DNA of 46,916 bases from Clostridia bacterium (GCA_900757905.1 CAAEPN010000130.1:1-46916), one strand, 5' to 3'. Shown: positions 1,192 to 31,314, numbered from the stretch's first letter. Notes: generated by a model not told the origin, from the letters alone. Program-made: numbers and translations.

Positions 1192-2643
1192 TCACTTTTT
1201 GTCAGCCGCTGTCAATAGCTGTTTTTCTGTTTTGGCGCTTTCTGATGCCCGTTCGAGCCGCTTTAAAATCACCTCGGCGCAAATGAAGTGAACGGCCGAC
1301 GTGAGAAGCCATGACAGCGGAAAGGAAACGAAAATGCACGCAAGTGTCTGATGCTTCGGGAACACCGCAAGAAGCCACACCACACGGAAAACGCACGAGC
1401 CGGCAAGCGACACACATGCCGCCGTCACCGCGCGTCCGAGTCCCTGCATGGTTCCTGACCCTACCTCCATAAACGCAAGAAAAATATACGGCACAAGCAT
1501 ATAAAATGTGCGTATTTCCGCCGCGTCATACGCCATGCGCTCGACTGAACCGAGCGCCGCCCTATGGATTCCGTATAGAGAAAACAACGGCGCACGGGCA
1601 AGGATCAGCAAGCTGCCAAAGAGGATCGCCGCACCCGCACCGATAAGATAGCAGCACCGGCGCACACTTCTTACACGTTTATAATTCTGCGCACCGGCGT
1701 TCTGCCCCACAAAGCACACTGCCGCCTGTCCCACCGCATTCACCGCAATGTTCGCAAAGCCTTCGATACCGGTTGCGGCCGAAACGCCCTTGACGACCGG
1801 CGCAAACGCGGCGTCAGACGGCGCGGTCAGCGTGTTTACCGTGATGACCGACGACTGAATGAGCATATGCGATACCGAAAACAGCATGCTTTGAACGCCG
1901 GCCGGGAGACCGATGTGCAAGATCTTCAGAAACGGCGTTTTTCGAATGCCTATTTGTGAAAGCTTTAGCTGAAACAGCTCGCTTTTCATGAGCTTACGCA
2001 CAAAAAGCAAGGCGCACAGCGCATTGGAAAGCACGGTCGCCGCCGCCACACCGTCTACCGACCGGCCGCACACAAGCACGAAAAACAGGTTCAATACCAC
2101 ATTCACCGCGCCGCCGAGCGTCAAAATCTTCATCGGCGTTTTGGTATCGCCCGACGCATGAAGTAACGACGAGGAAAAGTTGACTACCGACACAAACGGT
2201 ACGCCGACAAAGTACAGCCGCGTATAAAGTAATGCCAACTCATACAGCTTTCCGCTGTTTCCCATAAAGCGAAGCACGCTGCCGCTTAGTATAAAGCCCG
2301 CCGCGCCGCACAGAACGCCGAAAAGCACGCTCATGCCGAGCGCTGTATTTAAGGTTTCGGATACCGCCTTTTTATTTCCGGCTCCAAGCGAACGCGCCAT
2401 CACCACCTTTGCGCCGACGCTGCACCCGATAAAGACATTGATGATAAGATTGATAAACGAGGACGTCGTACCGACCGCGCCCACTGCGTCCGGCTCGCCG
2501 GAAAGGCCGACCACAACGGTATCGGCCATATTGAACGCCACCTGTAACAGGTTTGCGGCAATAAGCGGCAGGCAAAAACGTAGTATCTGCGGAAAAAGCG
2601 CGCCTTGGAGCATGGAAGCCTGCGCTTTATGTGATTTGTTCAT
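1192..2643 (-). CDS. MATE family efflux transporter
   Basis: 483-aa polytopic membrane ORF with the duplicated MatE-type repeat pattern. Tightly packed downstream of the 2656-4653 gene (12-nt gap). Confidence 0.85.
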   Translation of the reverse strand: MNKSHKAQASMLQGALFPQILRFCLPLIAANLLQVAFNMADTVVVGLSGEPDAVGAVGTTSSFINLIINVFIGCSVGAKVVMARSLGAGNKKAVSETLNTALGMSVLFGVLCGAAGFILSGSVLRFMGNSGKLYELALLYTRLYFVGVPFVSVVNFSSSLLHASGDTKTPMKILTLGGAVNVVLNLFFVLVCGRSVDGVAAATVLSNALCALLFVRKLMKSELFQLKLSQIGIRKTPFLKILHIGLPAGVQSMLFSVSHMLIQSSVITVNTLTAPSDAAFAPVVKGVSAATGIEGFANIAVNAVGQAAVCFVGQNAGAQNYKRVRSVRRCCYLIGAGAAILFGSLLILARAPLFSLYGIHRAALGSVERMAYDAAEIRTFYMLVPYIFLAFMEVGSGTMQGLGRAVTAACVSLAGSCVFRVVWLLAVFPKHQTLACIFVSFPLSWLLTSAVHFICAEVILKRLERASESAKTEKQLLTAADKK

Positions 2644-2655
2644 GTTCGCTTTGCC

Positions 2656-4653
2656 TCACTTTTCAAAGGTGCGGATACACTTATCTTCGTCAGACGGACT
2701 CTCGGCAAGGGCATTGTAGAACTTGATGAAATAGTATAGCAAGCCGTCCTGCTCGTTGGCGTAATCGTCGTAAAACTCGCATTTCACGCCGTTGACCGAA
2801 AACGGATAGAGATAGGTACATGACGCACTTCCGTCCTCACGGTAGAGAGAAAGCATATTGCGTGCGCTTTCATAGGCGCGCGTTTTGTACGCCTTGTCTC
2901 CGCTCACGGCGGCATAGTGCAGAAAGGCGTTGGAGGTATGTACTGATGCCGAATGCGGAAACGTATCGCCATACATGCGCCGCTTGCCGAACCAATAACC
3001 GTCCCAGTGCCGGATGGCTTGATCGTGCAAGAAATGCGACGGTTGGCTGCCGTTGAAGCGTTCGAGGATTTTTATATGCTTGCCGGCGTCGTCAAGCAGA
3101 CGTTTGTCCTCCGTGAGCATATAGAGCTGACTTAAAATGGTTACGGCCGGCGCAACGATGGTCTGCTCGTATTTGACCTCGTGTTCGGGATAATTCGTGC
3201 TGTTTTTCATAATGGTCTCGGCGTGCTTTTTGTACATTTCGGTAAGCGCGTCGGCCTTATCGTCCAAGCCGGCCTTACGCAATGCCGTCACGCTCTCATA
3301 CACCGAAAGGCCGTTGGGATAGAACTTTTCGCCGCCGATAGAATAGTACACCGAAAGTAACTTGAACATCTTCTCAAGATACGCCTTGTCGCCGGTCAAG
3401 TTGTACATTTCAAGCACTAACACCGACATCCACGGGGCGTTGTACAGCCGCTTGAACTCGGTGTGCTTGCCGACGTTGTTATACACCTCGCCGGTCTCTT
3501 CATCGTAAAACTCGCGCGTAACAAATCTATAGTACTTCATGAATTTTTCGTAGACTTCGTCGTCCTTTACCCATTGCAGATACTTTGCCACCAAAAGTCC
3601 CATAACAAGCCGCTCACGCGACGCGTTGAAATCGGTGAACACATAGTCGAATACCTGACATTTCTCCTCGTTGTCATAGATGAGAAACGCGCCGTCTAAC
3701 ATATCGCCCTCTTCATGGAACTGCTGCTTGTCGATGATAAAATGAACGCGGCGTCGAATCAGCTCCTTTAACGGCAGCTGTACGAAAAAGCGCGTTATTG
3801 TCTCGTTTTCTCCCACACGTACCGTAAATAAGTGGTCGCCCAAACGCTCCGGCGAAAGCGACACCTGCGTTTTTCCGTCTTTAACGCAGACCGGAATATT
3901 TTTTCCGTCAAGAAAAATCGAAGCATTCGGATGGTTGACGGTAAACGCTATCTTTTCATTCGAAAAAACGGTGAAATTTTCCGAATCGATCAAAATGAGG
4001 TCCTGTCTTTTTTCAAGCTCTTCGCGGAAATGACCGTCCTTATACCAAAACATTTCCCACGAAAGCTTTATTTTTTCACCGGGTCTTAAGCGAAACGGCG
4101 TCGGGTGCAGAATAAAATCGCCGCGGTCGTCGCTGCCAAGATTGCCGAGACGGTTTACCACGTGTAATATCCGGTCAATGCTGTACGAATCAAGGCTTCC
4201 CTCGGTAAGCACAAGGCCGAGTCCGAAATCGCAAAGACCCATTTTGACCGCGTTTATGTAGGAGGTATTCCGGCCGCACCAGATGTTTGTGTTGCACCGC
4301 TCAGTCATGCAGACTTTCGCGTTGGCATAGCTGTCGCGAAAGGGTGCATAAATGCCAAAATCGCCGCGATTGCAGAAAACATCGCCTTCCAAGCGGTTTT
4401 CAAGCGTATAGGTCTCGCGGTAGGTATCGCCGCAAAGCGCACGCTCCGCCGTAATGCGTAGATAGTAGGTTTCATACACGGTATTTATGCCGTTTTCGGT
4501 CGGCGTGACCGACACAACTTTTGCATTTTTCACCGTGCCCCACGTATTGTTTACACCAAGCCAGTTCATGGCATAAGGGTCGGCAGCGTTTACCATGGAT
4601 TCCACACCGCCGTTTTGTAAATTATAGCGGATTTCAAATAAATTTTCGAACAT
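2656..4653 (-). CDS. hypothetical protein, possibly an (alpha/alpha)6-barrel glycoside hydrolase/lyase-like enzyme
   Basis: Long ORF. I place the start at ATG 4653 (MFENLFEIRY...) because GGAGGAAAGAAGA precedes it; the track ORF begins 57 nt further upstream without an RBS. The helical, aromatic-rich C-terminal half (HWDGYWFGK, GDTFPHSASVHT) and the neighbouring CE2 and AraC genes suggest carbohydrate metabolism. The family was not recognised. Confidence 0.6.
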   Translation of the reverse strand: MFENLFEIRYNLQNGGVESMVNAADPYAMNWLGVNNTWGTVKNAKVVSVTPTENGINTVYETYYLRITAERALCGDTYRETYTLENRLEGDVFCNRGDFGIYAPFRDSYANAKVCMTERCNTNIWCGRNTSYINAVKMGLCDFGLGLVLTEGSLDSYSIDRILHVVNRLGNLGSDDRGDFILHPTPFRLRPGEKIKLSWEMFWYKDGHFREELEKRQDLILIDSENFTVFSNEKIAFTVNHPNASIFLDGKNIPVCVKDGKTQVSLSPERLGDHLFTVRVGENETITRFFVQLPLKELIRRRVHFIIDKQQFHEEGDMLDGAFLIYDNEEKCQVFDYVFTDFNASRERLVMGLLVAKYLQWVKDDEVYEKFMKYYRFVTREFYDEETGEVYNNVGKHTEFKRLYNAPWMSVLVLEMYNLTGDKAYLEKMFKLLSVYYSIGGEKFYPNGLSVYESVTALRKAGLDDKADALTEMYKKHAETIMKNSTNYPEHEVKYEQTIVAPAVTILSQLYMLTEDKRLLDDAGKHIKILERFNGSQPSHFLHDQAIRHWDGYWFGKRRMYGDTFPHSASVHTSNAFLHYAAVSGDKAYKTRAYESARNMLSLYREDGSASCTYLYPFSVNGVKCEFYDDYANEQDGLLYYFIKFYNALAESPSDEDKCIRTFEK

Positions 4654-4761
4654 TCTTCTTTCCTCCGTGTTTTTTGTTTGCCGCCTTTCATTATACGTCA
4701 TCTGCGGCAAATTACCATAGACATTTCGATTCGTTTATTTGCACTTTTCGAAATACTTTGC

Positions 4762-6675: not shown

Positions 6676-6868
6676 CTGCCCCACCGCCGCCATCCGGACA
6701 GGCGTAAAGATATTTTATCAAATTTCTTCAGTCGCAAGAAAACGTCGAATAAAGTAACATTTTATTAACATATGTTCCGGCACGTTGTATTATAATTGTA
6801 TCAGGGTAAAATGTACTCTATACAACTTTAGCGGCTTTTGTCCGCTCGGAAAAGGAAGGACATTAAAA

Positions 6869-7585
6869 ATGATCAAAGTAACGATTTTTAACGAATTTAT
6901 CCATGAAGTCGAACAGGAAGCCGCAAAGGCCGTCTATCCGAACGGCATGCATATGGCTATCAAGGAATTTCTCGACGCCGACGGCCGCTTTACCGTTCGC
7001 ACCGCAACGCTTCATGAGCCAGAACACGGTCTCACGCAAGAAGTTCTCGACGACACCGATGTGCTTCTTTGGTGGGGCCACTGTGCGCACCATTTGGTGG
7101 ATGACGCTGTTGTTGAGCGCGTTTACGAGCGCGTTTTGCAGGGCATGGGACTTATCGCGTTGCACTCCGGTCACTTCTCCAAGATATTCAAGAAATTAAA
7201 CGGCACCGGCTGCAACTTAAAATGGCGCGAAAGCGGCGACAAGGAACGCATTTGGATTACGGCGCCCTCTCATCCGATCGCTGCCGGTCTTCCCGAATAT
7301 TTCGAGCTTCCGCACGAAGAGACCTATGGCGAGCATTTCGACATTGCAAAGCCCGATGAAGTGGTCTTTACCAGCTGGTTTACCGGCGGCGAGGTCTTCC
7401 GCAGCGGTGTGACCTTTACGCGCGGCAACGGACGCATCTTCTACTTCCGTCCGGGTCACGAGACCTTCCCGACCTACTATGACAAGAATGTTCAGCGCGT
7501 TATCGAAAACGCGATCGTTTGGGCAGCTGAGCCGAGAGGCGTTTTCCAGACCTACGGCTTCTACAATGCGCCCGAAAGCAAATAA
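6869..7585 (+). CDS. ThuA domain-containing protein (trehalose-utilisation ThuA family)
   Basis: ATG 6869 preceded by AAAGGAAGG. Motifs: [50 protein letters not shown]. The track start at 6785 is an upstream TTG extension. Confidence 0.8.
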
Positions 7586-7587
7586 GC

Positions 7588-8007
7588 ATGGTTTACGCGA
7601 TTATTGACGCACAAAGCGATATCGAAGAAATGATTACCGTCGCGCACGCCGAAAAGCCTTGCGGTCTTGCCGCATGGTTTATTGATGAGGTGCGCGACAC
7701 GGCTGACATGTATTTGAGCGACGACAAGGATTTTGAGGAGATCGAGAGATCCTTGTCGGTGCTTTCGGTTTTGGCTGAGGACGAATCTTCGGATACAGAT
7801 GACCTAAACGGCATGACTATCGAGGCCGGTGATATCTCCGTCAGCGTGATCGGCACGTTTTATACCTATGAGGATATGAAAAAAGCGCTTGGCGAATTCT
7901 TATCCGAAAAGCCGAAATACAAGAAGATCGTCATTCCCGACAACCCGTACGAAAGCGAAAAAGTAATCGATTCGCTCAATTCCGCGCTCATCCGCAGCGG
8001 TATTTAG
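7588..8007 (+). CDS. hypothetical acidic protein (139 aa)
   Basis: ORF starts 2 nt after the thuA-like stop with only a weak RBS, so translational coupling is likely. No recognisable motif. Confidence 0.5.
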   Translation: MVYAIIDAQSDIEEMITVAHAEKPCGLAAWFIDEVRDTADMYLSDDKDFEEIERSLSVLSVLAEDESSDTDDLNGMTIEAGDISVSVIGTFYTYEDMKKALGEFLSEKPKYKKIVIPDNPYESEKVIDSLNSALIRSGI

Positions 8008-8020
8008 AGGTGCGCACGAA

Positions 8021-9223
8021 ATGATAAGTATGCGAAAATTCCGCACACCGGACGCCGTTATCGCCGGCGCAGGCTTTTCCGGCATGACGCTTGCACGCGC
8101 TCTTGCCGAAAAAGGCGTGAAAGTACTCGTTTTGGAAAAACGGAGCCACATCGCCGGCAACGCTTACGACGAAAAGGACGAACAGACCGGTCTTACGGTC
8201 CACCGCTACGGTCCGCACATTTTTCATACGCGCGACAAGGCGGTCTTTAATTTTCTGTCCCGTTTTACCGATTGGAACGGCTATGAGCATAAGGTGCTTG
8301 CCAACATCTACGGGAAATTTATGCCGGTGCCCTTTAATTTGGATTCGCTGTATCTTGCCTTTCCGGAAACGAAAGCCAAGGCTTTGGAACAAAAGCTGTT
8401 GGCACGGTACGGCGAGAATACGAACGTATCCATTTTGGAGCTGTTAAAAACCGACGACAGCGCTCTTCATGAGCTTGGCTCTTATATCTATCGCAACATT
8501 TTTGAAACCTACACGGTCAAGCAATGGGACAAGAAGCCGGAGGATATCGATCCGGCCACCACAGCGCGCGTTCCGATTCGTCTTTCGCGCGACGACCGTT
8601 ATTTCACCGACCCGTATCAGGGCTTGCCGACAGACGGCTATACGCCGCTCTTTCGCCGCATGGCCGACCACGAAAATATTGAGATCCACACAAAAACCGA
8701 CGCGTTAAGCCTTATGCGGCTTTCGGAATCCGACAAAAAGCTGTATTTTGACGGGCAGCCATTTTGCGGCGTATTCGTTTACACGGGTGTGCCGGACGCT
8801 TTGCTTGACCGGCGCTGCGGTGCGCTTCCCTATCGGTCGCTCGATTTTTCGTTTGAAGTACAGAACACCGAATTTTTCCAACCCTGCGGCACAGTCAATT
8901 ATACGGTAGATAAGGACTACACGCGCATTACCGAATTCAAGCACATGACGCTTGAAAAATCACCGCGAACCGTAATTTTGAAGGAATACTCCAAAAACTG
9001 CGATTTTGCGCGCGGCGATATTCCCTACTACCCGATTCTTTCGCCGGAAAGTACGGCATTGTTTGAAAAATATACTGCCGCACTTGCTGCATATAAAAAT
9101 CTGTACCTTATCGGACGGCTTGCCGAATACCGCTATTACAACATGGACGCGGCGGTTTCGCGCGCGCTTGCGGCGGCCGACGAGATTCTTGCCGCGCATT
9201 TTGCCTGCGGCGCTTCGGTTTGA
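8021..9223 (+). CDS. glf: UDP-galactopyranose mutase
   Basis: N-terminal FAD fold VIAGAGFSGMTLARALAEKG, HRYGPHIFHT, ~400 aa length and a C-terminal YRYYNMD motif typical of Glf. AGAGGTG RBS. Confidence 0.85.
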   Translation: MISMRKFRTPDAVIAGAGFSGMTLARALAEKGVKVLVLEKRSHIAGNAYDEKDEQTGLTVHRYGPHIFHTRDKAVFNFLSRFTDWNGYEHKVLANIYGKFMPVPFNLDSLYLAFPETKAKALEQKLLARYGENTNVSILELLKTDDSALHELGSYIYRNIFETYTVKQWDKKPEDIDPATTARVPIRLSRDDRYFTDPYQGLPTDGYTPLFRRMADHENIEIHTKTDALSLMRLSESDKKLYFDGQPFCGVFVYTGVPDALLDRRCGALPYRSLDFSFEVQNTEFFQPCGTVNYTVDKDYTRITEFKHMTLEKSPRTVILKEYSKNCDFARGDIPYYPILSPESTALFEKYTAALAAYKNLYLIGRLAEYRYYNMDAAVSRALAAADEILAAHFACGASV

Positions 9224-9252
9224 CCTTAATGAACTGACATTCAAGAAAGGGA

Positions 9253-10284
9253 TTGATTTTTTTGCCGAACGGACAAAAAATAATAACCTTTGCCATTCCC
9301 TGCTACAACTCGGCAGACTATATGGATAAATGCGTGGAATCGCTGCTTCATGCCGGCGACGACACGGAAATCATTTTGATTGACGACGGCTCGACCGACC
9401 GCACGCCGGAAATTGCCGACGCTTACGCCGAAAAATATCCCGAAAAGATCCGCGTGATTCATCAGGAAAACGGCGGTCACGGCGAGGGCGTCAACCAAGG
9501 ACTTCGACACGCGTCGGGTCTGTTCTACAAGGTAGTCGATTCGGACGACCGGTTAGACCCGGCAGCGCTTGAAAAGCTGCTCTGCCGCATGCGTGAGCAT
9601 ATCGCCGAAAACAAGATGGTGGATATGTATGTCTGCAACTATGTTTACGACCATTGGGACGGTTCGGAACGCAAGGTCATGCGCTACAACAACGTGTTTC
9701 CCGAAGAAAAGATTGTCACATGGGACGATACGCGCCGCTTTTTAGTCACTCAATATCTCATGATGCATTCGGTCATCTACCGGACGGAATTCTTGCGCGG
9801 CTGCGGCATTACGCTGCCCAAGCACACGTTTTATGTAGACAATTTATATATGTATCAGCCGTTTCCGTATGTGAAGAGCCTATACTATATGAATCTCGAC
9901 TTATATCTGTACTTTATCGGGCGTGCCGACCAATCGGTCACCGAGCAGAATGTCATCAAGCGCATTGACCAACAGCTTCGCGTGACGCGCCTTATGCTCG
10001 ACTGTCACGATCTGAACAAGGTGGAAAAGCAAAGCAAGCGCTTATATTCGTACATGATTCACGAAATGGCGCTTATGGTATGCATTTCCTCGATTTTTCT
10101 ATACAAATCGGGTACAGAAGAAAATTTCCAAAAAGCAAAAGACCTTTGGGCGTACATAAAAGCGAAAGACATACGCACCTACCGGAAATTACGCTACACC
10201 ACCATGTGCGCGCTCATGCTCCTTGGACGGCACTTTTCAGTAACAGTCTACTCGGTCGCACGGAAAGTGTTTCGTTTTAATTAG
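9253..10284 (+). CDS. family 2 glycosyltransferase
   Basis: TTG start. Motifs: ITFAIPCYNSADYMDKCVESLL, ILIDDGSTDRT, VVDSDD (DxD). Directly downstream of glf. Confidence 0.8.
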   Translation: MIFLPNGQKIITFAIPCYNSADYMDKCVESLLHAGDDTEIILIDDGSTDRTPEIADAYAEKYPEKIRVIHQENGGHGEGVNQGLRHASGLFYKVVDSDDRLDPAALEKLLCRMREHIAENKMVDMYVCNYVYDHWDGSERKVMRYNNVFPEEKIVTWDDTRRFLVTQYLMMHSVIYRTEFLRGCGITLPKHTFYVDNLYMYQPFPYVKSLYYMNLDLYLYFIGRADQSVTEQNVIKRIDQQLRVTRLMLDCHDLNKVEKQSKRLYSYMIHEMALMVCISSIFLYKSGTEENFQKAKDLWAYIKAKDIRTYRKLRYTTMCALMLLGRHFSVTVYSVARKVFRFN

Positions 10285-10408: not shown

Positions 10409-11551
10409 ATGTTCAAACGCACTCCGGCAAAAAAATCGCTTGCAGAGCTCACCTTATTTTTCCGAAAAAACACCGTTATGGTCATCGCGCTTCTTGCGGC
10501 GCTTATCACCATGTTTATCGTGCCGCCGGATAAAACGTATGCGTCCTACTTCGATTACAAAACGCTTGCCTGTCTGTTTTGTGTGCTTGCAACGGTATGT
10601 GCATTAAAGAATATCCGTTTTTTCTATCTGCTTGCGCGCAAGATCGTCCGTTTGGCCGGGAATGCAAGGGCGGGTGTGTTGGCGCTTGTCTATATCACCT
10701 TTATCGGGTCTATGCTCATTGCAAACGATATGGCTTTACTTACGTTTTTGCCGCTTGGCTACTACACGCTAAGCACCTGCGGCAAACAAAAATACATGGC
10801 GTTCACCTTTATTATGCAAAACATTGCCGCCAATCTCGGCGGAATGCTGACCCCGTTCGGAAATCCGCAGAATCTGTATCTTTACACGAAATTTGACATA
10901 CCAAACCTCGAATTTCTTCGTATCATGGCGCCGCCGTTTACGTTCTCGGTTTTGCTGATAACGCTGTGCTGCATTCTTTTTGTCAAGCCGGAAAAGCTTG
11001 AATGGGAGGAAGAGAGCGTCCTGTTAAGCGCACCGCGAACCGTGTTGTACCTTGCGCTTTTTGCACTGTCAATTGCCATCGTATTTCGCGGAATTCCCTA
11101 TCTCATCGGACTTATCTTAATTCCTGCCGTACTTTTCCTTGCCGACCGCAAGGCACTTAAAATGGTAGACTACCCCTTGCTTTTAACCTTTGTATTCTTC
11201 TTTATTTTTGCAGGAAATATGGCGCGTATTGAGGCTGTCCGAGCATTCTTTTCTTGGTTTTTAAACAAAAATACGCTGATTTTCAGTGCGCTTTCCTGTC
11301 AGTGTATCAGCAATGTTCCGTCGGCAATTCTGCTTTCTCAGTTTACCGAAAACTATGCCGATCTTCTTGTGGGCGTCAACATCGGCGGTGTAGGAACACT
11401 GATCGCGTCGCTGGCCAGCCTTATCACGTTTCGGGAATATGTGGCGCACAATCCGCATAAGGCCGGAAAATACGTCGCCGAATTTTCCGTTTTTAACTTT
11501 ACTTTTTTGTTCCTTTTAATCGGATTTATGCTGCTTTTGAAAATCGGATAA
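10409..11551 (+). CDS. anion permease of the ArsB/NhaD (YbiR/citrate-transporter-like) superfamily
   Basis: 380-aa polytopic ORF with the FGNPQNLYLY motif characteristic of this superfamily. AAGAAGGA RBS. Confidence 0.65.
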   Translation: MFKRTPAKKSLAELTLFFRKNTVMVIALLAALITMFIVPPDKTYASYFDYKTLACLFCVLATVCALKNIRFFYLLARKIVRLAGNARAGVLALVYITFIGSMLIANDMALLTFLPLGYYTLSTCGKQKYMAFTFIMQNIAANLGGMLTPFGNPQNLYLYTKFDIPNLEFLRIMAPPFTFSVLLITLCCILFVKPEKLEWEEESVLLSAPRTVLYLALFALSIAIVFRGIPYLIGLILIPAVLFLADRKALKMVDYPLLLTFVFFFIFAGNMARIEAVRAFFSWFLNKNTLIFSALSCQCISNVPSAILLSQFTENYADLLVGVNIGGVGTLIASLASLITFREYVAHNPHKAGKYVAEFSVFNFTFLFLLIGFMLLLKIG

Positions 11552-11556
11552 GCTCT

Positions 11557-11594
11557 AAAAAGCGCTGTGTCTTTTTTAAGACACAGCGCTTTTG
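11557..11594. terminator. bidirectional intrinsic terminator
   Basis: 13-bp stem agcgctgtgtctt/aagacacagcgct with loop tttt, flanked by an A-run and a T-run. Sits between the convergent permease and murE-fusion genes. Confidence 0.85.
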
Positions 11595-11607
11595 TACAGT
11601 AAAATAA

Positions 11608-13974
11608 CTAACCTTTAGCCGAAATGGTCGTACCGATCTTTCCTTTTGTAATAAAATAGGAGATCAGATTATAGCGCACGCTTCCGTTGACGATAGCCAC
11701 TTCGGAAACGCCGTTTTGCACAGAGTTAATGCAGTTTCTTAGTTTCGGCATCATGCCGCCGTCGATAAAGCCGTTTTCGATAAGATCCTTTGCCTTATCC
11801 ACCGAAAGCGTGTTGACAAGCGTATCGGCATTGTTGACGTCGAGCAAGATTCCGTCCACGTCGGTCAAAAACATGAGCGTATCGGCGTTAAGCGCTTCGG
11901 CAACGGCAAATGCCGCGTCATCGGCGTTGACATTGAGCGTTTCGCCCTTATCCGATGAAGAAACGGGCGAAACCACCGGCAGAAAGCCGTTTTCCAATAA
12001 CAGCTCCAATATCTTCGGTTCGACCTTGTCTACTTTTCCGACATAGCCGATATCGCCCTCCGGAATGGTCTTGCGCACGGCCGTAATAAGATTTCCGTCC
12101 TTGCCGGAAAGACCGCAGGCATTCAGATTTTCATCTTTGAGTCCCTGCACAATGGCCTTATTGACCTTGCCGGAAAGTATTTCCTCGACAATGCCGATAG
12201 CGTCTTTTCCGGTTACGCGATAGCCGCCCTTGAATTCCGGCACAATGCCGTTTTTCTTCAAGGCCGCCGAAATGGCTTTGCCGCCGCCATGCACAAGCAC
12301 GACCTTTGCGCCCACCATTTTGAGCATTTCGATATCTTCGTAGAGATTTTTTAACGCACTTTCGCTTTCCATAATGCTGCCGCCAAGCTTGATGAGAACC
12401 GTCTTGCCAAACAGCTTGCGGAAAGCCGGAAGTACGCTTTGGAAGCCGCTGATCTTTTCCGACGCGTCGATCTTGTGCTCCACGTCGTACTCTTTTAAGT
12501 ATTTTTTCGTATATTCCACATCGGTTTCGCAGGGCACATATTTTGTACCGCGCTTTTGTCTGGTTTCGTTGCCTTTGCCGGTCACAAGAACAACCGTTTC
12601 ACGTCCGGCCGACAAAATCGCCTTGCGGATGGCCTCGCCTCTGTCCGGTTCGATCTCATAGGCGCAGCCTTGGGAAGCCACATGCTCGGCAATCTGCTTG
12701 CATATCTGCATAAGCGGCTCTTCGCCGGGATCTTCCTCAGTGATGTAGACATAGTCGGAATATTTTCCGGCAAGCTCGCCAAGATCCTTTCTTCGCTGAA
12801 ACGCCTTGCCGCCCGGACAGCCGAACACCGTGACAATGCGTCTGCCGGGAAATTCCTTGGTTACCGAATCGTATAAGCACTCAAAGCTGAGCTTGTTGTG
12901 GGCGTAATCGACAATCGTCACAATTTTATTGTCGCTGTTGGTATAGCTTTCCATGCGTCCGGAGGAACGCGCTTTCATAAGTCCCACATACACAAAGTGC
13001 TTCGGAATGCCGAGTAACAGACACACGCTGATTGCGGCAAGCGCGTTCTGTACGTTGAAAAGGCCGGGAATGGTGAGCGTAAACTCTTCGGAATACTCCG
13101 GCGTGCGGACATGAAAGACCGTATCGTTGCCGGATTTTCGGATATTGTAGGCGTATACATCGGCTTTTTCATCGGTTGTCGAGAAGGTTATCACCTTTTC
13201 GCAGACACTCGCCGCTTGAAGCACCTCGTCACGGCGCAGCGTATCAAGGCTCACACAAGCGCGCTTGCAATGGGAGAACAGCTTCATTTTCGAAGCAAAA
13301 TAGTCGTCAAAATCCGGATGCTCCACCGCGCTGATGTGATCCTCGCCGATGTTTAAGTACACGCCGATATCAAAGCCGACGCCATACACGCGGTCATATT
13401 TGAGCGCTTGGGAGGATACCTCCATAACAAGATACGGAATTTTCGCGTTTACGGCATTGGAAAAGTGTTTATACAGCTCTCCTGCTTCGGGCGTTGTAAG
13501 GTGCGACTCAAATTTTTCCGTGCCGTCATAGGTATCAATAGAAGAAATATAGGCGCAGGACGGCTTTTTCTCACTTTTCAGATATTCGTCAAGTATGTAT
13601 TTGATAAAATAAGTCGTGGTGGATTTTCCCTTTGTGCCGGTAATACCGATAAGGTCGATGTTCTTCCACACGCTGTCGTAAAAATAGTCGAATACGACCG
13701 CCATAGCGCGGCGAATATCGCTTACCAGAATACAGTCTGCGTCTACGGCATATTCGGTTTCCGAAAGGTAGCAAAACGCGCCGTGTGAGAGCGCTTCGCT
13801 TAAGTATTCCTCTTTAAAGTGAGCGCCTTTGCAGATAAAAAGCGTATTTTTTCCGGCTTCCTTGGAATTGTAGGTAACATTTTCCACGGCGGCGGACGGT
13901 TCCGCAAGATTCAGCTTTTCAATAAGACTGTTTTTACAAAGAAGCGTTACATAGTCGTTTAACGTATGTTTCAT
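11608..13974 (-). CDS. murE: fusion protein: Lys-type UDP-MurNAc-L-Ala-D-Glu--L-amino-acid ligase (MurE) fused to an acetylglutamate kinase-like (ArgB/AAK) domain
   Basis: 788 aa. Residues 1-~495 resemble streptococcal/enterococcal-type MurE: GITGTKGKSTT, LTTPE, MEVSSQA, LNIGEDHISAVEHPDFDDYFASKMKLF, and TEEDPGEE in place of the DAP-type DNPR. Residues ~500-788 form a complete amino-acid-kinase fold: GKTVLIKLGG, VLVHGGG, GGYRVT, LNVNADDAA, GGMMPK. There is one uninterrupted frame and no Met between LMQ (~aa 430) and the kinase N-terminus. Confidence 0.75.
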   Translation of the reverse strand: MKHTLNDYVTLLCKNSLIEKLNLAEPSAAVENVTYNSKEAGKNTLFICKGAHFKEEYLSEALSHGAFCYLSETEYAVDADCILVSDIRRAMAVVFDYFYDSVWKNIDLIGITGTKGKSTTTYFIKYILDEYLKSEKKPSCAYISSIDTYDGTEKFESHLTTPEAGELYKHFSNAVNAKIPYLVMEVSSQALKYDRVYGVGFDIGVYLNIGEDHISAVEHPDFDDYFASKMKLFSHCKRACVSLDTLRRDEVLQAASVCEKVITFSTTDEKADVYAYNIRKSGNDTVFHVRTPEYSEEFTLTIPGLFNVQNALAAISVCLLLGIPKHFVYVGLMKARSSGRMESYTNSDNKIVTIVDYAHNKLSFECLYDSVTKEFPGRRIVTVFGCPGGKAFQRRKDLGELAGKYSDYVYITEEDPGEEPLMQICKQIAEHVASQGCAYEIEPDRGEAIRKAILSAGRETVVLVTGKGNETRQKRGTKYVPCETDVEYTKKYLKEYDVEHKIDASEKISGFQSVLPAFRKLFGKTVLIKLGGSIMESESALKNLYEDIEMLKMVGAKVVLVHGGGKAISAALKKNGIVPEFKGGYRVTGKDAIGIVEEILSGKVNKAIVQGLKDENLNACGLSGKDGNLITAVRKTIPEGDIGYVGKVDKVEPKILELLLENGFLPVVSPVSSSDKGETLNVNADDAAFAVAEALNADTLMFLTDVDGILLDVNNADTLVNTLSVDKAKDLIENGFIDGGMMPKLRNCINSVQNGVSEVAIVNGSVRYNLISYFITKGKIGTTISAKG

Positions 13975-13992
13975 GATTCAAAACTCCGGTTT

Positions 13993-14721
13993 TTATTTTT
14001 GGAAATCGAATTCCGGCTTGAGTTTGCCGCCGCAAAGGCGAATGCATTTTTCGCAGAGCACATCGAGCGCGTCGAGATAAAAGCGGTCGAGCGCATGGTA
14101 GTTTTTAAAGCAGGACAGCTCGGTACACGCAAGAATTGCCGCTTCGCAGCCGTTTTTCTTCAAATACGTATCGATCTCGCCGAAATCGTCAATACTGCCC
14201 TTTTCGCCGGCCTTTATCTGGTCATAGATGATCTTCATAACCAATTTTTGCGTTCTTTCGTCCGGCGTCACACATTCAAGGCCGAGCTTTTCGCACTCTA
14301 TTTTATAGATTCCGGCATAGACTGTTCCGTCGGTGGCAAGAAGTCCCACTTTCTTTACAGAGGTATCCCTCTCCCGCACACGTTTTACCGCTTCGCGCAC
14401 CATGTGGATAATGGGAATGCTCACCTGCGCCTGCAATTCGTCGTAAAAATAGTGCGAAGTGTTGCAGGGAACGGCGATATAGTCCGCGCCGCAGCGTTCA
14501 AGCAGTTTTGCGTCCTCCGCAAGCAGTGAAAAGACCTTTTCGGTCTTTCCGGAGCGGATCGCCGCGGTGCGGTCAGGCATGGCGGCATGACTTAGGATGA
14601 TCATATCGATATGCTCTTGGTCACACCGTGCGTCGGTCATGGAAATGATCTTCTGATACATAAGTTCGGTTGCCTGCGGTCCCATGCCGCCGATAACGCC
14701 GAGTTTTCCCAATGCGCACAC
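13993..14721 (-). CDS. aspartate racemase (Asp/Glu/hydantoin racemase family)
   Basis: Motifs GVIGGMGPQAT and AVPCNTSH..., ACTELS (two catalytic Cys motifs). The true start is probably TTG at 14712, 8 nt after AAGGAG; the GTG at 14721 overlaps that RBS. Confidence 0.8.
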   Translation of the reverse strand: MCALGKLGVIGGMGPQATELMYQKIISMTDARCDQEHIDMIILSHAAMPDRTAAIRSGKTEKVFSLLAEDAKLLERCGADYIAVPCNTSHYFYDELQAQVSIPIIHMVREAVKRVRERDTSVKKVGLLATDGTVYAGIYKIECEKLGLECVTPDERTQKLVMKIIYDQIKAGEKGSIDDFGEIDTYLKKNGCEAAILACTELSCFKNYHALDRFYLDALDVLCEKCIRLCGGKLKPEFDFQK

Positions 14722-14724
14722 TCC

Positions 14725-15933
14725 TTATCTTCCCAAATACTTCTTGAACTTTACAAAATGGCCGAGCTGTGAGCGGATAAGCCGGAAAATGCGTTCCGGA
14801 TTATTGTCGCCCTTCATCCAAAGCGGATTGACATACTTGCCTTCCTTAATTAAGCGCTGCATACGCGCCTTGTAGGCCGGAGCATATTTGAAAGCAATCT
14901 CCTTGGGAACGACCATCCAAAGGTATTCGTTCTGCGCAATATCCTCCGGAATTTCATTTCCGTACACGTAATCCTCGACAAACAGCTTTGCCACGTTATG
15001 CCCCGAACCGGTCACATAGAAATTGCTTCTTCCCTGACGGGTATTGATCTCAAACGCACGGTATCTTCCGTCGCGCTTGTCAAGCTTGATATCGAAATTG
15101 GAAAAGCCGGTAAAATGGATGCTTTCGAGAAGCGTTTTGAACTTTTCCATAAGGTCTTTTTCATATTCGGTAATAATGACCGCGTGATTGCCGATTCCAT
15201 ACGGCGTATGCTCCTCCAAAAGAACATGTCCGAGGCACATCATCTTAACCTTGCCGTTACGGTCGGAATAGCTGGTAAGCACGCGCATATACGTGTCGTC
15301 ACCCGGCAGATAGTCTTGGATGATCATATGATCGCTGTAACCGGCTTCATAGACCTTTTTCACGGTCTCGGCAAGCTCAGCGCGCGTTTTTAATTTAAAG
15401 ACCTTCTTCTGGCCGTCAAATTTGTGCTTATAATATTCCACCTGATTGGCCGGCTTTAAAATATACGGCGAATCGAACGGGACTTCGAGATTCGTATAGT
15501 TTTCTGCCGTGCAGATATAGGTTTTGGGATAATCGATGCCGTGCTCCTTGCAAAGCTCATAGAATTTTTCCTTATCCATGAGATTTTCAAGAAAATCATA
15601 ATCGGCATACGGGCAAATGACGTTGGGTGGGAATTTGTCCCTATTCACGGCAAGGCACTTGACATAGTTGTCGCCGCAGCCGATAGCAAGAATCTTTTTA
15701 TCGGCATGCTCTGCGGCATACTTGCCAAGGACATCCAACAGCACTTCAGGCGTGTCCAAATTCTTTATTTCCGTAAAATCGACAAGCTTGCTCTTGTAGC
15801 AGGTGCCCATGAGCGCCTTGCCGAAAACGCGCGATTTCATCTTATATTCTTCATAAAATGCGCGTGCGACGCTGTATACGTTGATATCGTTTCCGAATAA
15901 AACCGGAATAAAATCCTTTTGCGTAAATTCCAT
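14725..15933 (-). CDS. ATP-grasp carboxylate-amine ligase, D-aspartate ligase (Asl)-like
   Basis: 402 aa. Motifs recalled from the enterococcal/lactococcal D-Asp ligase family: FIPVLFGNDINVY, GCGDNY, ICPYADYDF, FYELC, LKPANQVE, IIQDYLPGDD.YMRVL, GFSNFDIK.D.RDG.Y.AFEINTRQGRS. Immediately followed by an Asp racemase, as in asl-racD operons. Confidence 0.65.
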   Translation of the reverse strand: MEFTQKDFIPVLFGNDINVYSVARAFYEEYKMKSRVFGKALMGTCYKSKLVDFTEIKNLDTPEVLLDVLGKYAAEHADKKILAIGCGDNYVKCLAVNRDKFPPNVICPYADYDFLENLMDKEKFYELCKEHGIDYPKTYICTAENYTNLEVPFDSPYILKPANQVEYYKHKFDGQKKVFKLKTRAELAETVKKVYEAGYSDHMIIQDYLPGDDTYMRVLTSYSDRNGKVKMMCLGHVLLEEHTPYGIGNHAVIITEYEKDLMEKFKTLLESIHFTGFSNFDIKLDKRDGRYRAFEINTRQGRSNFYVTGSGHNVAKLFVEDYVYGNEIPEDIAQNEYLWMVVPKEIAFKYAPAYKARMQRLIKEGKYVNPLWMKGDNNPERIFRLIRSQLGHFVKFKKYLGR

Positions 15934-16002
15934 GACGGAAAACCGCCTTTCTTTTTTAACTTAAAAATACGCCTTGCAGCTTACCCTGTTCATGATAAGA
16001 TT

Positions 16003-16031
16003 ATTATAGTCTTTTGAAAGCAAAAATGCAA
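16003..16031 (-). promoter_or_regulatory. sigma-A type promoter of the asl-like/racemase/murE-fusion operon
   Basis: On the minus strand: TTGCAT (16031-16026), 17 bp, TATAAT (16008-16003). Confidence 0.7.
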
Positions 16032-16060
16032 GCGTATGCCCAATTGGTAACACATAATTA

Positions 16061-16103
16061 ACAAAAGGCGCTGTGAAGAAGCACAATGCTTTTCCACAGC
16101 GCC
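16061..16103 (-). terminator. intrinsic terminator after alr
   Basis: 9-bp stem ggcgctgtg/cacagcgcc (16067-16075 / 16095-16103), followed on the minus strand by ttttgt. Separates alr from the downstream operon. Confidence 0.65.
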
Positions 16104-16119
16104 CAAAGACTCTTAAGTT

Positions 16120-17286
16120 TCAAACTTTTCGTTCTTCATTTTCCGTTTCCAATTCACGATACACGCGCGGCACGCGAGCCGAAACCGCACACAATATCTC
16201 ATACGGAATGGTGTCCGCCCACGAGGCCACCTCTTCGGCCGATAAAAACGCCTCTGCGTCCGAACCGAATAATACCGCGTCGTCGCCAACCGCGGCCTCC
16301 GGGATGTCGGTCACATCCACCATAGCCATGTCCATGCAAATACGCCCCACAAGCGGCGCTTTTTTGCCGTGGCATAACACATATCCCTTTCCCGAAAGGC
16401 AGCGCTTGTAGCCGTCGGCATAGCCCGCGCCGATGACGGCGATACGCCGGTCGGAATCCGCTGTATAGGTGCAGCCGTAGCTGACGCTTTCGCCCTTTTT
16501 CAGGGCATGCACATTGATAACGCGCGTCTTAAAGGTCATAGCCGGCTTGCAGGCCGCGTCAAGGTTTCCGCAGCCGTAAAGCGTCACACCCATGCGCACC
16601 GCATCGAGGTGCATGTGCGGAAAATTCACGATTCCGGCGCTGTTGCAGATGTGGCGATAGGTCGGCTGAATGCCGAGCGCACGCAGCTTTTCGACCGTAT
16701 CGGTAAAACGCGCATACTGCATTTCGGTAAAATCCGCGCCGTCCGGTTCATCCGCAACGGCAAAATGCGAGAAAATGCCCTCACACACAAGGTTATCGTG
16801 GCTTCGGATAAGCGAAGCTGCCCGGACAAGCTCCGCGTCTAACGGTTGTTCCGGCGCGCTTTTTGCGGCAAAGCCGGTGCGGTTCATGCCGGTATCGAGC
16901 TTGATATGGATCTTTACGGTTCTGCCGTCCGCCGCCTGCAAGATTTTTTCCAAGTGCGCCACGGTATCGACCGCAAGCGAAATGCCGTTTTCGACGGCCT
17001 CCGGCAAAAATTCGTCCAATACAAAGCCGAGCACTAAAATCATGCCGTTTATGCCGCCTGTGCGAAGCTCGAGCGCTTCGTCAATATTGGACACGGTAAA
17101 AAGCTTACAGCCGACGCTTTCAAGCTTTTTGGCAACCGCAAGAGCGCCGTGACCGTAGGCGTCCGCCTTGACGACTGCCGCCACCTCGGCCGGTCTGCAC
17201 AAATCCGCCGTATGGCGGTAATTCGCGGCGATTGCCTCCAAATCGATGACGGCACGCGTTTTTTTGACGTCTGTATGATTAAGCAT
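16120..17286 (-). CDS. alr: alanine racemase
   Basis: 388 aa. PLP-lysine motif AVVKADAYGHG and C-terminal SYG..Y motifs. Conserved position after a ydcC-like lipoprotein gene. Confidence 0.9.
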   Translation of the reverse strand: MLNHTDVKKTRAVIDLEAIAANYRHTADLCRPAEVAAVVKADAYGHGALAVAKKLESVGCKLFTVSNIDEALELRTGGINGMILVLGFVLDEFLPEAVENGISLAVDTVAHLEKILQAADGRTVKIHIKLDTGMNRTGFAAKSAPEQPLDAELVRAASLIRSHDNLVCEGIFSHFAVADEPDGADFTEMQYARFTDTVEKLRALGIQPTYRHICNSAGIVNFPHMHLDAVRMGVTLYGCGNLDAACKPAMTFKTRVINVHALKKGESVSYGCTYTADSDRRIAVIGAGYADGYKRCLSGKGYVLCHGKKAPLVGRICMDMAMVDVTDIPEAAVGDDAVLFGSDAEAFLSAEEVASWADTIPYEILCAVSARVPRVYRELETENEERKV

Positions 17287-17317
17287 GGATTTCCTCTTTT
17301 CGTTTTGCTTGCGGAAA

Positions 17318-17941
17318 CTACATTTCGGTTCCCTTAAATTTCTTCATTTTGACCTCTGCCGCGCTTCCATCGTATTCGGCGCATATATCGAGCGGCGTTC
17401 CGGTCACGCTGTCATAAACGAGAATATACCGGACGTCGCCGCACAGAAATTCCGTTTGATACGCCTCGATCTCCCCAAGTCCCTCGACCGCATAGACCTC
17501 TTCACAGGGAACGAACGCGCTCCCGGGCGTTTTCTCGACAGCCGCCGCAACGCTGTCGGCGAACAACGACAGCATAAGATCCAGCTTATCGAGCGAATGC
17601 TTCGGCAATTCCGCCTTGATACCGGAATAGGACAGGCTGATGATATCCGCACGGTCATCTGCACCCATTTCAGCACTGACGCCGGTAAACGGGTCGGGCG
17701 AAGTGATGTCGATCCGGACGGTATCCGAGCGCGTCACATGAGCTGTTCCGGCCACCGATTCGCCGTCCTTTTCAAAGACAAACTCAATTTCGGCGGCATA
17801 GGGTGAAAACAGCGTTGTACATAAATTTTTTTTGCCGGTCGCGTCGGTACAGCCGACAGTCGGCAACAGCAAAAAAAGCATAAGCGCCGCGCATACACCG
17901 CGCACAAAGGAAGTTTTACGCCGGAGCGTCATGGTTTTCAA
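17318..17941 (-). CDS. lipoprotein, YdcC/LolA-like (hypothetical)
   Basis: Signal peptide with lipobox-like LPTVGC. ~200 aa. Located between nnr and alr, as ydcC is in Bacillus. Confidence 0.6.
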   Translation of the reverse strand: MKTMTLRRKTSFVRGVCAALMLFLLLPTVGCTDATGKKNLCTTLFSPYAAEIEFVFEKDGESVAGTAHVTRSDTVRIDITSPDPFTGVSAEMGADDRADIISLSYSGIKAELPKHSLDKLDLMLSLFADSVAAAVEKTPGSAFVPCEEVYAVEGLGEIEAYQTEFLCGDVRYILVYDSVTGTPLDICAEYDGSAAEVKMKKFKGTEM

Positions 17942-31230: not shown

Positions 31231-31259
31231 TTGACAGACCCTATGAAACGTGATAAAAT
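31231..31259 (+). promoter_or_regulatory. sigma-A type promoter (extended -10) of asnA
   Basis: TTGACA (31231-31236), 17-bp spacer ending in TGa, TAAAAT (31254-31259). Confidence 0.65.
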
Positions 31260-31314
31260 AATTTTATCATTTCTCATAGGCACAGCGTTTTCTCTGTGTC
31301 AGAAGGACGTTTTC

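Follow-up and report, generated by a model that had tools for sequence, protein, structure and literature searches.

Several Mur ligases are known to be fused to a second enzyme in one polypeptide, as in MurE–MurF (PRK11929; PDB 8f5d), MurF–Alr (PRK11930), and MurC–Ddl. The gene considered here, murE::argB, joins a MurE ligase to an N-acetylglutamate kinase (NAGK, or ArgB) and is found on a stretch of DNA of 46,916 nucleotides from a Clostridia bacterium (GCA_900757905.1 CAAEPN010000130.1:1-46916), which, at its whole length, is called the window in what follows. It resembles the known fusions in uniting a Mur ligase with another enzyme within a wall-synthesis cluster, and 8f5d matches its MurE half. 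The partners differ: in the known fusions the partner is a peptidoglycan enzyme that acts on the same precursor, whereas here it is an enzyme of ornithine/arginine biosynthesis. The MurE–MurF model PRK11929 failed on the protein (257.8 bits vs. 1023), of which the MurE half alone matched. As detailed below, murE::argB is conserved in one clade of the Oscillospiraceae, and its kinase half is predicted from its residues to be catalytically active and arginine-blind.

Amino-acid kinase (AAK) domains have also been found fused to another catalytic domain in N-acetylglutamate synthase (NAGS, or ArgA), in the bifunctional NAGS/K, and in yeast NAGK-DUF619. In these proteins an acetyltransferase lies at the C-terminus, whereas in murE::argB a Mur ligase lies at the N-terminus. 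The AAK domain of classical NAGS is inactive yet has been retained for regulation and oligomerization (PMC3236213, PMC3329491, PMC10464499).

With respect to gene arrangement, a counterpart exists in the lactococcal and enterococcal aslA–racD operon, in which an ATP-grasp ligase puts racemase-made D-Asp on the side-chain amine of the position-3 residue (PMC4155827). Like the aslA/Aslfm–racD genes of Lactococcus lactis and Enterococcus faecium, the murE::argB locus has an ATP-grasp gene beside an Asp-type racemase gene in one operon, together with a MurE that is not of the type adding meso-diaminopimelate (DAP). It differs in that murE is part of the operon and in that the acceptor is possibly ornithine instead of lysine; the likeness is one of gene arrangement. 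The fusion had been pointed out in an earlier note, made from the sequence alone, which described a streptococcal/enterococcal L-Lys-type MurE joined to a complete ArgB-like domain and suggested a coupling to ornithine supply and an L-Orn-D-Asp (A4beta) wall.

The fusion gene and its distribution

The murE::argB gene occupies positions 11608-13974 on the minus strand, as do all of its parts described below. It starts with ATG, encodes 788 aa followed by a stop codon, and contains no internal stop; since the reading frame is also unbroken in the junction DNA, which was inspected directly, the single in-frame open reading frame (ORF) that had been proposed is borne out. Three Pfam domains are detected, all of them expected by the earlier note: Mur_ligase_M (residues 111-317, 130 bits), Mur_ligase_C (339-468, 90 bits), and AA_kinase (524-763, 159 bits, with positions 1-234 of the 234 in the model covered). 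The protein passes the NCBIfam models for both murE (TIGR01085, 296.8 bits vs. a cut-off of 257.3) and argB (TIGR00761, 239.8 vs. 151.3), and every motif that had been read from it is present (GTKGKST, EDHIS..EHPDFDDYF, TEEDPGEE, GKTVLIKLGG, VHGGG, GYRVT, NVNADDAA, and GGMMPK). Pfam, TIGR01085, and Foldseek delimit a MurE module (residues 1-499, positions 12478-13974) with the full Mur-ligase architecture, namely an N-terminal domain, an ATP-binding middle domain, and a C-terminal domain with a tail helix (485-499). The ArgB/NAGK catalytic core follows (residues 524-788, positions 11611-12405), as defined by Pfam AA_kinase, TIGR00761, and its match to a solved NAGK of T. maritima (2bty).

An AlphaFold2 model of the fusion protein, with an alignment of 84 homologs as input, reached a mean predicted local distance difference test score (pLDDT) of 88.9 and a predicted template-modeling score (pTM) of 0.74. 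When this model was searched with Foldseek, the MurE half matched the solved MurE of M. tuberculosis, S. aureus, T. maritima, and E. coli with template-modeling (TM) scores of 0.82-0.88; the closest solved matches of the N-terminal half are MurE of Mycobacterium thermoresistibile, T. maritima, and M. tuberculosis. Among solved structures, the kinase half comes closest to 2bty (232 bits, 43% identity), on which it superposes with a TM score of 0.93 and an rmsd of 1.9 Å. No solved structure among the structure-search matches spans both halves. In the organism of the window, both halves are probably active enzymes.

The 55 residues that separate Mur_ligase_C from AA_kinase are not a spacer. Residues 469-499 (ETRQKRGxxYxxCxxDVEYTKKYLKEYD) form the C-terminal tail of MurE, and unfused relatives carry the same tail. 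Residues 502-521 (positions 12412-12471) form the NAGK N-terminal helix, which alignment and helix prediction relate to the interlacing N-helix of hexameric arginine-sensitive NAGKs; they align with the N-helix of the enzymes from T. maritima (2bty, residues 10-26), P. aeruginosa (2buf), Synechococcus, and Arabidopsis (a set that includes 2jj4). What had been taken for a linker of about 25 aa is therefore made up of this tail and this helix, and only a segment of about 8 residues (503-510, positions 12445-12468) is hinge-like, as the sole segment of the AlphaFold2 model with a pLDDT below 50. Given this flexible hinge and the pTM of 0.74, the two enzymes look tethered rather than rigidly docked. 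An internal start at the junction was also considered and rejected: a purine-rich stretch in the window is followed by GTG, but at this codon other fusions have ATA, AAA, ATT, or GTA.

The chance that two separate genes were joined by an assembly, frameshift, or gene-calling artefact is practically nil. The identical 788-aa protein is encoded on at least nine metagenome contigs, and the five that were inspected come from different samples and assemblers, at least one sample being labeled human gut. Homologous full-length fusions occur in 188 further clusters, isolate genomes included, the junction sequence is conserved among fusions, and no internal start codon is conserved there. A missed stop or frameshift at the junction, which the earlier note had named as a possible refutation, is thereby ruled out.

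The same MurE-plus-kinase architecture, which the earlier note had proposed to look for in relatives, is carried by these 188 clusters (90% identity, 770-830 aa), in none of which the kinase motifs are missing. The best 120 matches of a protein search were all three-domain proteins (120/120) of about 780-820 aa with 54-93% identity, and over all the fusion members compared, identity to the window protein ranges from 50 to 93%, in keeping with an old fusion; a search seeded from a relative brought in a Lawsonibacter/Pseudoflavonifractor branch. At 50% clustering, the best 150 of 32,143 matches included one full-length fusion representative and some shorter forms, and because this full-length representative is the only one among them, the murE::argB fusions are considered to form one clade. 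The hosts named in the sources are Clostridia bacterium, Lawsonibacter sp., Oscillospiraceae bacterium 44-34, and Pseudoflavonifractor phocaeensis; isolates with the fusion are Lawsonibacter sp. LCP25S3_F5 and LCP25S3_G6 and P. phocaeensis (WP_235372252.1).

In the databases, intact fusions are labeled "acetylglutamate kinase," and forms with a relic kinase tail (see below) are labeled "UDP-N-acetylmuramyl-tripeptide synthetase." In the searchable full-text literature, no paper was found that connects MurE or a Mur ligase with acetylglutamate kinase or the AAK family. The statement that no MurE–AAK fusion had been described thus holds for the literature, whereas the architecture itself is widespread and has been annotated automatically: the fusion is undescribed, not unseen, and what is new in it is the joining of two enzyme families that are themselves well known.

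Residues of the kinase and ligase halves

Residue counts for the kinase half cover the window protein and the 188 fusions (189 sequences, none of which was removed by the filter) and are given in T. maritima numbering. K27, G30, H60-G63, R84, T86, N178, N180, A181, D182, T201, D202, G233, M234, P236, and K237 are invariant (189/189), and G29 is kept in 188. The residues that serve catalysis and the binding of N-acetylglutamate (NAG) and ATP in NAGK have been established in E. coli (K8, G11, G44, R66, N158, D162, and K217; PMC3236213), and the equivalents checked in the fusions (K27, G30, H60-G63, R84, N178, D182, and K237) are all among the invariant ones. With the catalytic residues kept and TIGR00761 passed, the proposal of a complete ArgB-like domain holds; a stand-alone ArgB of Collinsella scores 254.6 bits on the same model. 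By alignment, the kinase is similarly intact in the Lawsonibacter-type fusions (779-791 aa), which have NCNADDAA and GGM[AV]PK.

In NAGKs that are inhibited by arginine, the site of inhibition has the signature E-L-F-(T/S)-x-x-G-x-G-T, and the N-helix supplies an aromatic side chain that contacts arginine, which in the T. maritima enzyme is Tyr15 (PMC3236213). In place of this signature, the window protein has the degraded form YFITKGKIGT (residues 773-782, positions 11629-11658). The Glu of the arginine site (E266) is kept in just 27 of the 189 fusions, and the first Gly of the signature (G272) in none of the 180 for which the residue was listed. The Tyr15 column holds A, I, or V in 178 of the 189 (Ala in the window) and is not aromatic in any of the 186 listed. 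The signature is kept in the stand-alone Collinsella ArgB and in all solved NAGKs with an N-helix. Compared with the NAGKs of T. maritima (2bty) and P. aeruginosa (2buf), the fusion kinase therefore shares the N-helix, the catalytic and NAG-binding residues, and the AAK fold, but it is preceded by a MurE of 500 residues, has lost the arginine signature and Tyr15, and is not part of an arg operon.

In the MurE half, the ATP P-loop GTKGKST (residues 113-119, positions 13618-13638) is highly conserved: G113-K117 are invariant and S118 is kept in at least 90% of 84 sequences, and all seven residues are invariant among 15 sequences. E185, H213, G466-K467-G468, and E470 are likewise invariant among the 84, and K229 is kept in at least 90%. 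We take the roles of these residues (Mg-binding Glu and His, carbamoylated Lys at K229, GKGxE) to be those assigned in E. coli and S. aureus MurE. Where a meso-DAP-adding MurE has its DNPR motif, the fusion MurE has TEEDPGEE (residues 412-419, positions 12718-12741), in an acidic, arginine-free pocket; T412, E413, E414, D415, G417, E418, and E419 are invariant, and position 416 (P in the window) is variable. A motif table of 80 loci likewise gives EDPG in place of DNPR in fusion MurE. By its motifs, then, this MurE is not of the DAP type, as the earlier note had held.

The assignment to the streptococcal/enterococcal L-Lys type did not stand. The corresponding model (NF010628) failed, with 333.4 bits vs. 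a cut-off of 536, and a DAP-labeled MurE model failed with a score near that one (347.5 vs. 715); since Lys-type and DAP-type equivalog models all failed, that label is unsupported. S. aureus MurE has a DNPA motif and an acidic site that prefers cationic side chains (PMC3829189). That enzyme takes L-Orn about 400-fold less well than L-Lys, its fidelity leaning on a high lysine pool (PMC3829189). The fusion MurE shares with S. aureus MurE (4c12/4c13) and T. maritima MurE (4bub) the three-domain fold, the P-loop, the Mg ligands, and GKGxE (TM 0.86-0.88), and with non-DAP MurE the missing DNPR arginine and the acidic pocket. It differs from the S. aureus enzyme in having E-E-D-P-G-E-E instead of DNPA and in its additional C-terminal kinase of 290 residues. 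Because its pocket is acidic and lacks DNPR, as in S. aureus, the fusion MurE should accept L-Lys or L-Orn and not DAP; judging from these residues, it should add a cationic diamino acid, either L-ornithine or L-lysine, to the stem.

Some related loci encode two MurE enzymes. In three of them (L008:11718-13208, L015:12032-13501, and L017:~12200-13580, minus strand), a second, canonical DAP-type MurE with DNPR and GKGHE adjoins an unfused non-DAP murE that is nested in the fusion clade. In Lysinibacillus sphaericus, the wall of vegetative cells is of the Lys-D-Asp kind and the spore cortex contains DAP, and by analogy the two-MurE loci may parallel this division between vegetative and spore walls. 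Another second MurE paralog, with the motif MGDPGDEDP, is found in L025 and L028.

A putative D-Asp cross-bridge operon and a possible ornithine link

Upstream of murE::argB, and on the same minus strand, lie genes that suggest the synthesis of a D-Asp cross-bridge. At a distance of 18 nt, positions 13993-14721 encode an Asp/Glu-family racemase (PF01177, 136.7 bits), probably a RacD-like aspartate racemase, which passes the cut-offs of both TIGR00035 asp_race (218 vs. 93) and the CuyB cysteate racemase model (213.8 vs. 190). Automatic naming of this gene could fall on either aspartate or cysteate, and the context favors aspartate. A further 3 nt upstream, positions 14725-15933 encode a 402-aa ATP-grasp ligase, a candidate D-aspartate ligase of the AslA/Aslfm kind. 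In NCBIfam it gives weak ATP-grasp and Ddl-type matches alone; no Pfam family or PDB match names it, and 120 homologs are called just "ATP-grasp domain-containing protein." An alanine racemase, possibly the first gene of the wall-precursor cluster, follows 186 nt upstream (positions 16120-17286; Ala_racemase_N and Ala_racemase_C; TIGR00492, 333.5 vs. 168). In two Lawsonibacter loci (L086:6697-7764 and L004:~6722-7729), the ATP-grasp gene is preceded by a divergent Alr-fold racemase of 355 aa, with 26% identity to the window Alr and a TIGR00492 score of 135.5, below 168, which may not act on alanine. A scan for promoters and terminators over positions 11300-17600 found sites no more frequent than in shuffled sequence.

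More than 20 loci share the pair of ATP-grasp and racemase genes. An arrangement with ATP-grasp first, racemase second, and MurE third is found in the fused loci L001-L004 and in four more fused loci from diverse branches, as well as in many unfused relatives (Clostridium aminobutyricum, Anaerovoracaceae, Lawsonibacter faecis, and Pseudoflavonifractor); in L005 and L035 the pair is not upstream of the fusion. As regards the D-Asp-bridged (A4beta) wall that had been suggested, its D-Asp part thereby gains strong gene context, and its ornithine part is unproven. A separate observation concerns an uncultured Oscillospiraceae metagenome-assembled genome (L018:255-2990), in which a 911-aa ORF joins the same non-DAP MurE, through a Lys-rich linker, to an ATP-grasp part with 34% identity to that of the window. 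This is a second Rosetta-stone link, here between MurE and a putative D-Asp ligase.

Several other genes were noted around the operon. Just downstream of the fusion, on the opposite strand (8021-10284, plus strand), are a UDP-galactopyranose mutase (Glf) gene and a family-2 glycosyltransferase (GT2) gene, followed further on by a MatE/MurJ-like flippase gene (1192-2643, minus strand); they are probable cell-wall polysaccharide genes, and other contigs of the species keep the Glf–GT2 pair in synteny. In one contig that encodes the identical fusion protein, a gene for an SLH-domain M13 peptidase (L083:3524-5863) replaces the downstream CitMHS transporter gene, a strain-level variation of the 3' flank. 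An AsnA-type aspartate–ammonia ligase is encoded about 17 kb from the operon (31231-32322, plus strand), and no AsnB/AsnH-type amidotransferase was seen in the window. Four minus-strand ORFs of 684, 971, 454, and 207 aa (2656-4710, 32801-35716, 36055-37419, and 17318-17941) have no Pfam match at E <= 1e-5, and the 207-aa ORF has no NCBIfam match either.

A link between arg genes and this type of MurE is found outside the fusion clade. In Collinsella aerofaciens 95F (L063:1958-11461), argC-argJ-argB-argD, the four genes of ornithine synthesis, are followed by a 148-aa ORF, an asnB-type glutamine amidotransferase gene, and a murE of the same non-DAP subfamily. The argCJBD-to-murE arrangement recurs in about 10 loci of Collinsella and associates arg genes with this MurE independently of the fusion. 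The asnB-type amidotransferase of Collinsella is similar to AsnH, the enzyme with which L. lactis amidates its D-Asp bridges. In Lawsonibacter, proC-proB-proA lie about 3.5 kb downstream of the fusion and were judged unrelated.

Wall chemistry and MurE motifs also bear on the identity of the position-3 residue. Olsenella uli, a relative of Collinsella, has a documented A4beta L-Orn-D-Asp wall (PMC3035265), and a review of gut peptidoglycan lists A4beta for "Eubacterium" with a reference to the paper in which E. aerofaciens was transferred to Collinsella. The Coriobacteriia genera Olsenella and Collinsella have MurE of the same subfamily as the window and share with it an E-D-P form of the motif, whereas Arcanobacterium has D-D-P and S. 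aureus D-N-P. These hints of ornithine for the fusion MurE are weak but consistent. Together with the loss of the arginine signature from a kinase that keeps its catalytic residues, they lend indirect support to the proposed coupling to ornithine supply, which is unproven; the choice between ornithine and lysine at position 3 is not settled.

Decay of the kinase, competing explanations, and significance

In about 45 clusters of 650-720 aa, MurE is followed by a relic kinase tail of 165-215 residues. What remains of the kinase in this tail is the N-helix, the first beta-alpha-beta unit, and the C-lobe. The lobe that binds NAG has been deleted, none of the five catalytic motifs is left, and Pfam detects at most the final third of AA_kinase. 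Examples are P. capillosus WP_204899313.1 and a protein of Pseudoflavonifractor phocaeensis strain 69_Shaedler_sukc20 (L019:10001-11983), and further relic-tail MurE proteins are P0122, P0123, P0124, P0146, and P0391-P0436. In a neighbor-joining tree of MurE halves, most relic forms nest among intact Lawsonibacter-type fusions (P0122, P0123, and P0146 lie elsewhere), and a few unfused genes (L045; L008, L011, L015, and L017) are also nested in the fusion clade. This nesting argues for secondary decay and loss of the kinase.

Sequence comparisons show that the two halves of the fusion evolve at similar rates and that both are under purifying selection. On the branch of the window, the ratio of nonsynonymous to synonymous substitution rates (dN/dS) is 0.09 for the MurE half and 0.15 for the kinase half in a pair whose dS is near saturation; mean identity among fusions is 63 and 57%, respectively. 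For the relic tail, dN/dS is 0.14, vs. 0.085 for MurE in the same pair, and AlphaFold2 predicts a compact domain with a pLDDT of 82-93 in most blocks. The inactive AAK domain of ArgA offers a parallel to these tails, with the difference that the relic forms here are without the whole NAG-binding lobe and without the arginine signature. A role of the relic tail as an arginine sensor was considered and is unlikely, as the signature is missing there as well as in the intact forms.

The explanation that we favor, at a probability of roughly 0.35-0.45, is that murE::argB encodes a bifunctional enzyme tying an arginine-independent supply of ornithine to the synthesis of L-Orn-D-Asp wall precursors. 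The gene would be the last of a peptidoglycan side-chain operon, (alr)–ATP-grasp ligase–Asp racemase–murE::argB. The MurE half would put L-ornithine or L-lysine on the stem, and the ATP-grasp ligase would then attach racemase-made D-Asp to the side-chain amine, giving a wall of the A4 type, here L-Orn-D-Asp (A4beta). The kinase half would carry out the step that controls ornithine synthesis, free of feedback by arginine, and the shared polypeptide would fix the ratio of kinase to MurE at 1:1. Because the kinase would be both insensitive to arginine and translated with MurE, position-3 ornithine would be made whenever wall precursors are, even with plentiful arginine. In addition, the kinase half would hold a second, non-catalytic role, which is suggested by the persistence of the dead tail in sister lineages.

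A number of points weigh against this explanation. No arg genes lie in the 47-kb window, nor within 10 kb of the fusion in five other annotated fused loci. Substrate channeling is not plausible, because ArgB is not the enzyme that releases ornithine, and coupling of MurE and kinase would be by expression and regulation alone. The AlphaFold2 model contains no confident MurE–AAK interface, and this MurE does not require kinase activity, since nested lineages have lost the kinase or hold a dead relic. The arginine signature was compared with Collinsella ArgB and the solved NAGKs, with no stand-alone ArgB of Oscillospiraceae as a baseline, and the correlation of E-D-P vs. D-D-P with the position-3 residue covers about two labeled genera per side. 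The ATP-grasp enzyme is a candidate D-Asp ligase from its context only, and no peptidoglycan chemotype was found in the searchable literature for Flavonifractor, Lawsonibacter, or Pseudoflavonifractor. The lack of nearby arg genes, the implausibility of channeling, the missing chemotype of the clade, and the thin Orn/Lys correlations hold the ornithine and L-Orn-D-Asp account to about 0.45.

Part of this evidence would suit a neutral or convenient fusion, in which MurE adds L-lysine to give an A4alpha L-Lys-D-Asp wall and the kinase is an ordinary ArgB, functionally unlinked to its partner. The flexible hinge with no confident interface, the absence of nearby arg genes, and the repeated loss or decay of the kinase within the clade all speak for it, as does the fact that L-Lys-D-Asp is the commoner D-Asp-bridged chemotype (PMC4155827); moreover, NCBIfam cannot separate Lys-type from other MurE types here. 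We nevertheless consider it less likely than the favored explanation, since both halves are strictly conserved in the 189 fused sequences, those compared being 50-93% identical to the window protein, and since none of the unfused relatives sampled has argB beside murE, so that the fusion needed a relocation and not simple read-through. The systematic loss of the arginine-feedback signature would also be surprising if the kinase were an ordinary ArgB of its class, in control of the pathway, the arg–murE linkage in Collinsella is independent, and the purifying selection on dead relics that are still predicted to fold indicates that the tail matters to the protein. This last observation raises the alternative that the kinase domain is mainly non-catalytic, an oligomerization, stability, or allosteric module for MurE, with NAGK activity a retained ancestral bonus in some lineages. 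The catalytically dead tails, mostly nested in the intact-fusion clade, with their constrained sequence and confident predicted fold, agree with such a role, and so does the N-helix, which joins dimers into hexamers in NAGKs (PMC10464499). It is rather improbable as the main explanation in the clade of the window, where the invariance of the catalytic residues in 189 of 189 sequences implies that catalysis is under selection; fully unfused MurE orthologs are common and presumably functional, no confident interface with MurE is predicted, and the absence of the arginine signature in intact and relic forms speaks against a sensor of arginine.

The earlier note had also raised the idea that the kinase activates a carboxylate on the stem peptide. 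In such a scheme, the kinase would phosphorylate UDP-MurNAc-peptide, for example on a position-3 glutamate, and ornithine would be built in place by a carrier route like that of LysW/LysZ. The tethering of the kinase to MurE would suit this, and by our own reasoning so would the chemistry, as NAGK phosphorylates N-acylated glutamate on its gamma-carboxylate and a gamma-D-Glu-L-Glu stem would resemble LysW-gamma-Glu-Glu. The scheme is very improbable: the kinase half has a classical ArgB score (239.8 vs. 151.3) and failed the LysZ/[LysW]-aminoadipate kinase model (141 bits vs. a cut-off of 223), the acidic MurE pocket would repel a glutamate side chain (PMC3829189), and relic-bearing and unfused sister lineages keep MurE, the ATP-grasp ligase, and the racemase with a dead remnant of the kinase or none.

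Whatever its function, the kinase is present in the intact state, as a relic, or not at all, and this series illustrates cleanly how an enzyme domain can turn in nature into a pseudoenzyme module. The database labels for intact and relic forms are inconsistent; an essential wall enzyme is thereby given the wrong name, by which metabolic reconstructions would be led astray. In addition, the predicted arginine-insensitive NAGK, a natural one, has a possible use in strains for arginine or ornithine production.

More generally, no earlier case was found in the searchable literature of a Mur ligase that shares a polypeptide with an enzyme of amino-acid biosynthesis, and murE::argB would be the first. 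The fidelity of MurE depends partly on substrate pools (PMC3829189); to judge by the fusion, a cell may be able to build provision of the position-3 amino acid directly into the making of precursors and release it from end-product feedback. Oscillospiraceae are common in the human gut, and their peptidoglycan chemotype is largely uncharacterized (PMC11382707). The locus predicts for them a non-DAP, D-Asp-bridged wall, which is testable in available isolates. If the favored explanation is true, a dedicated, arginine-blind ornithine branch reveals an L-Orn-D-Asp wall in abundant gut Oscillospiraceae. A non-DAP, D-Asp-bridged wall would alter host sensing (NOD1 vs. NOD2) and which lysins and antibiotics act.

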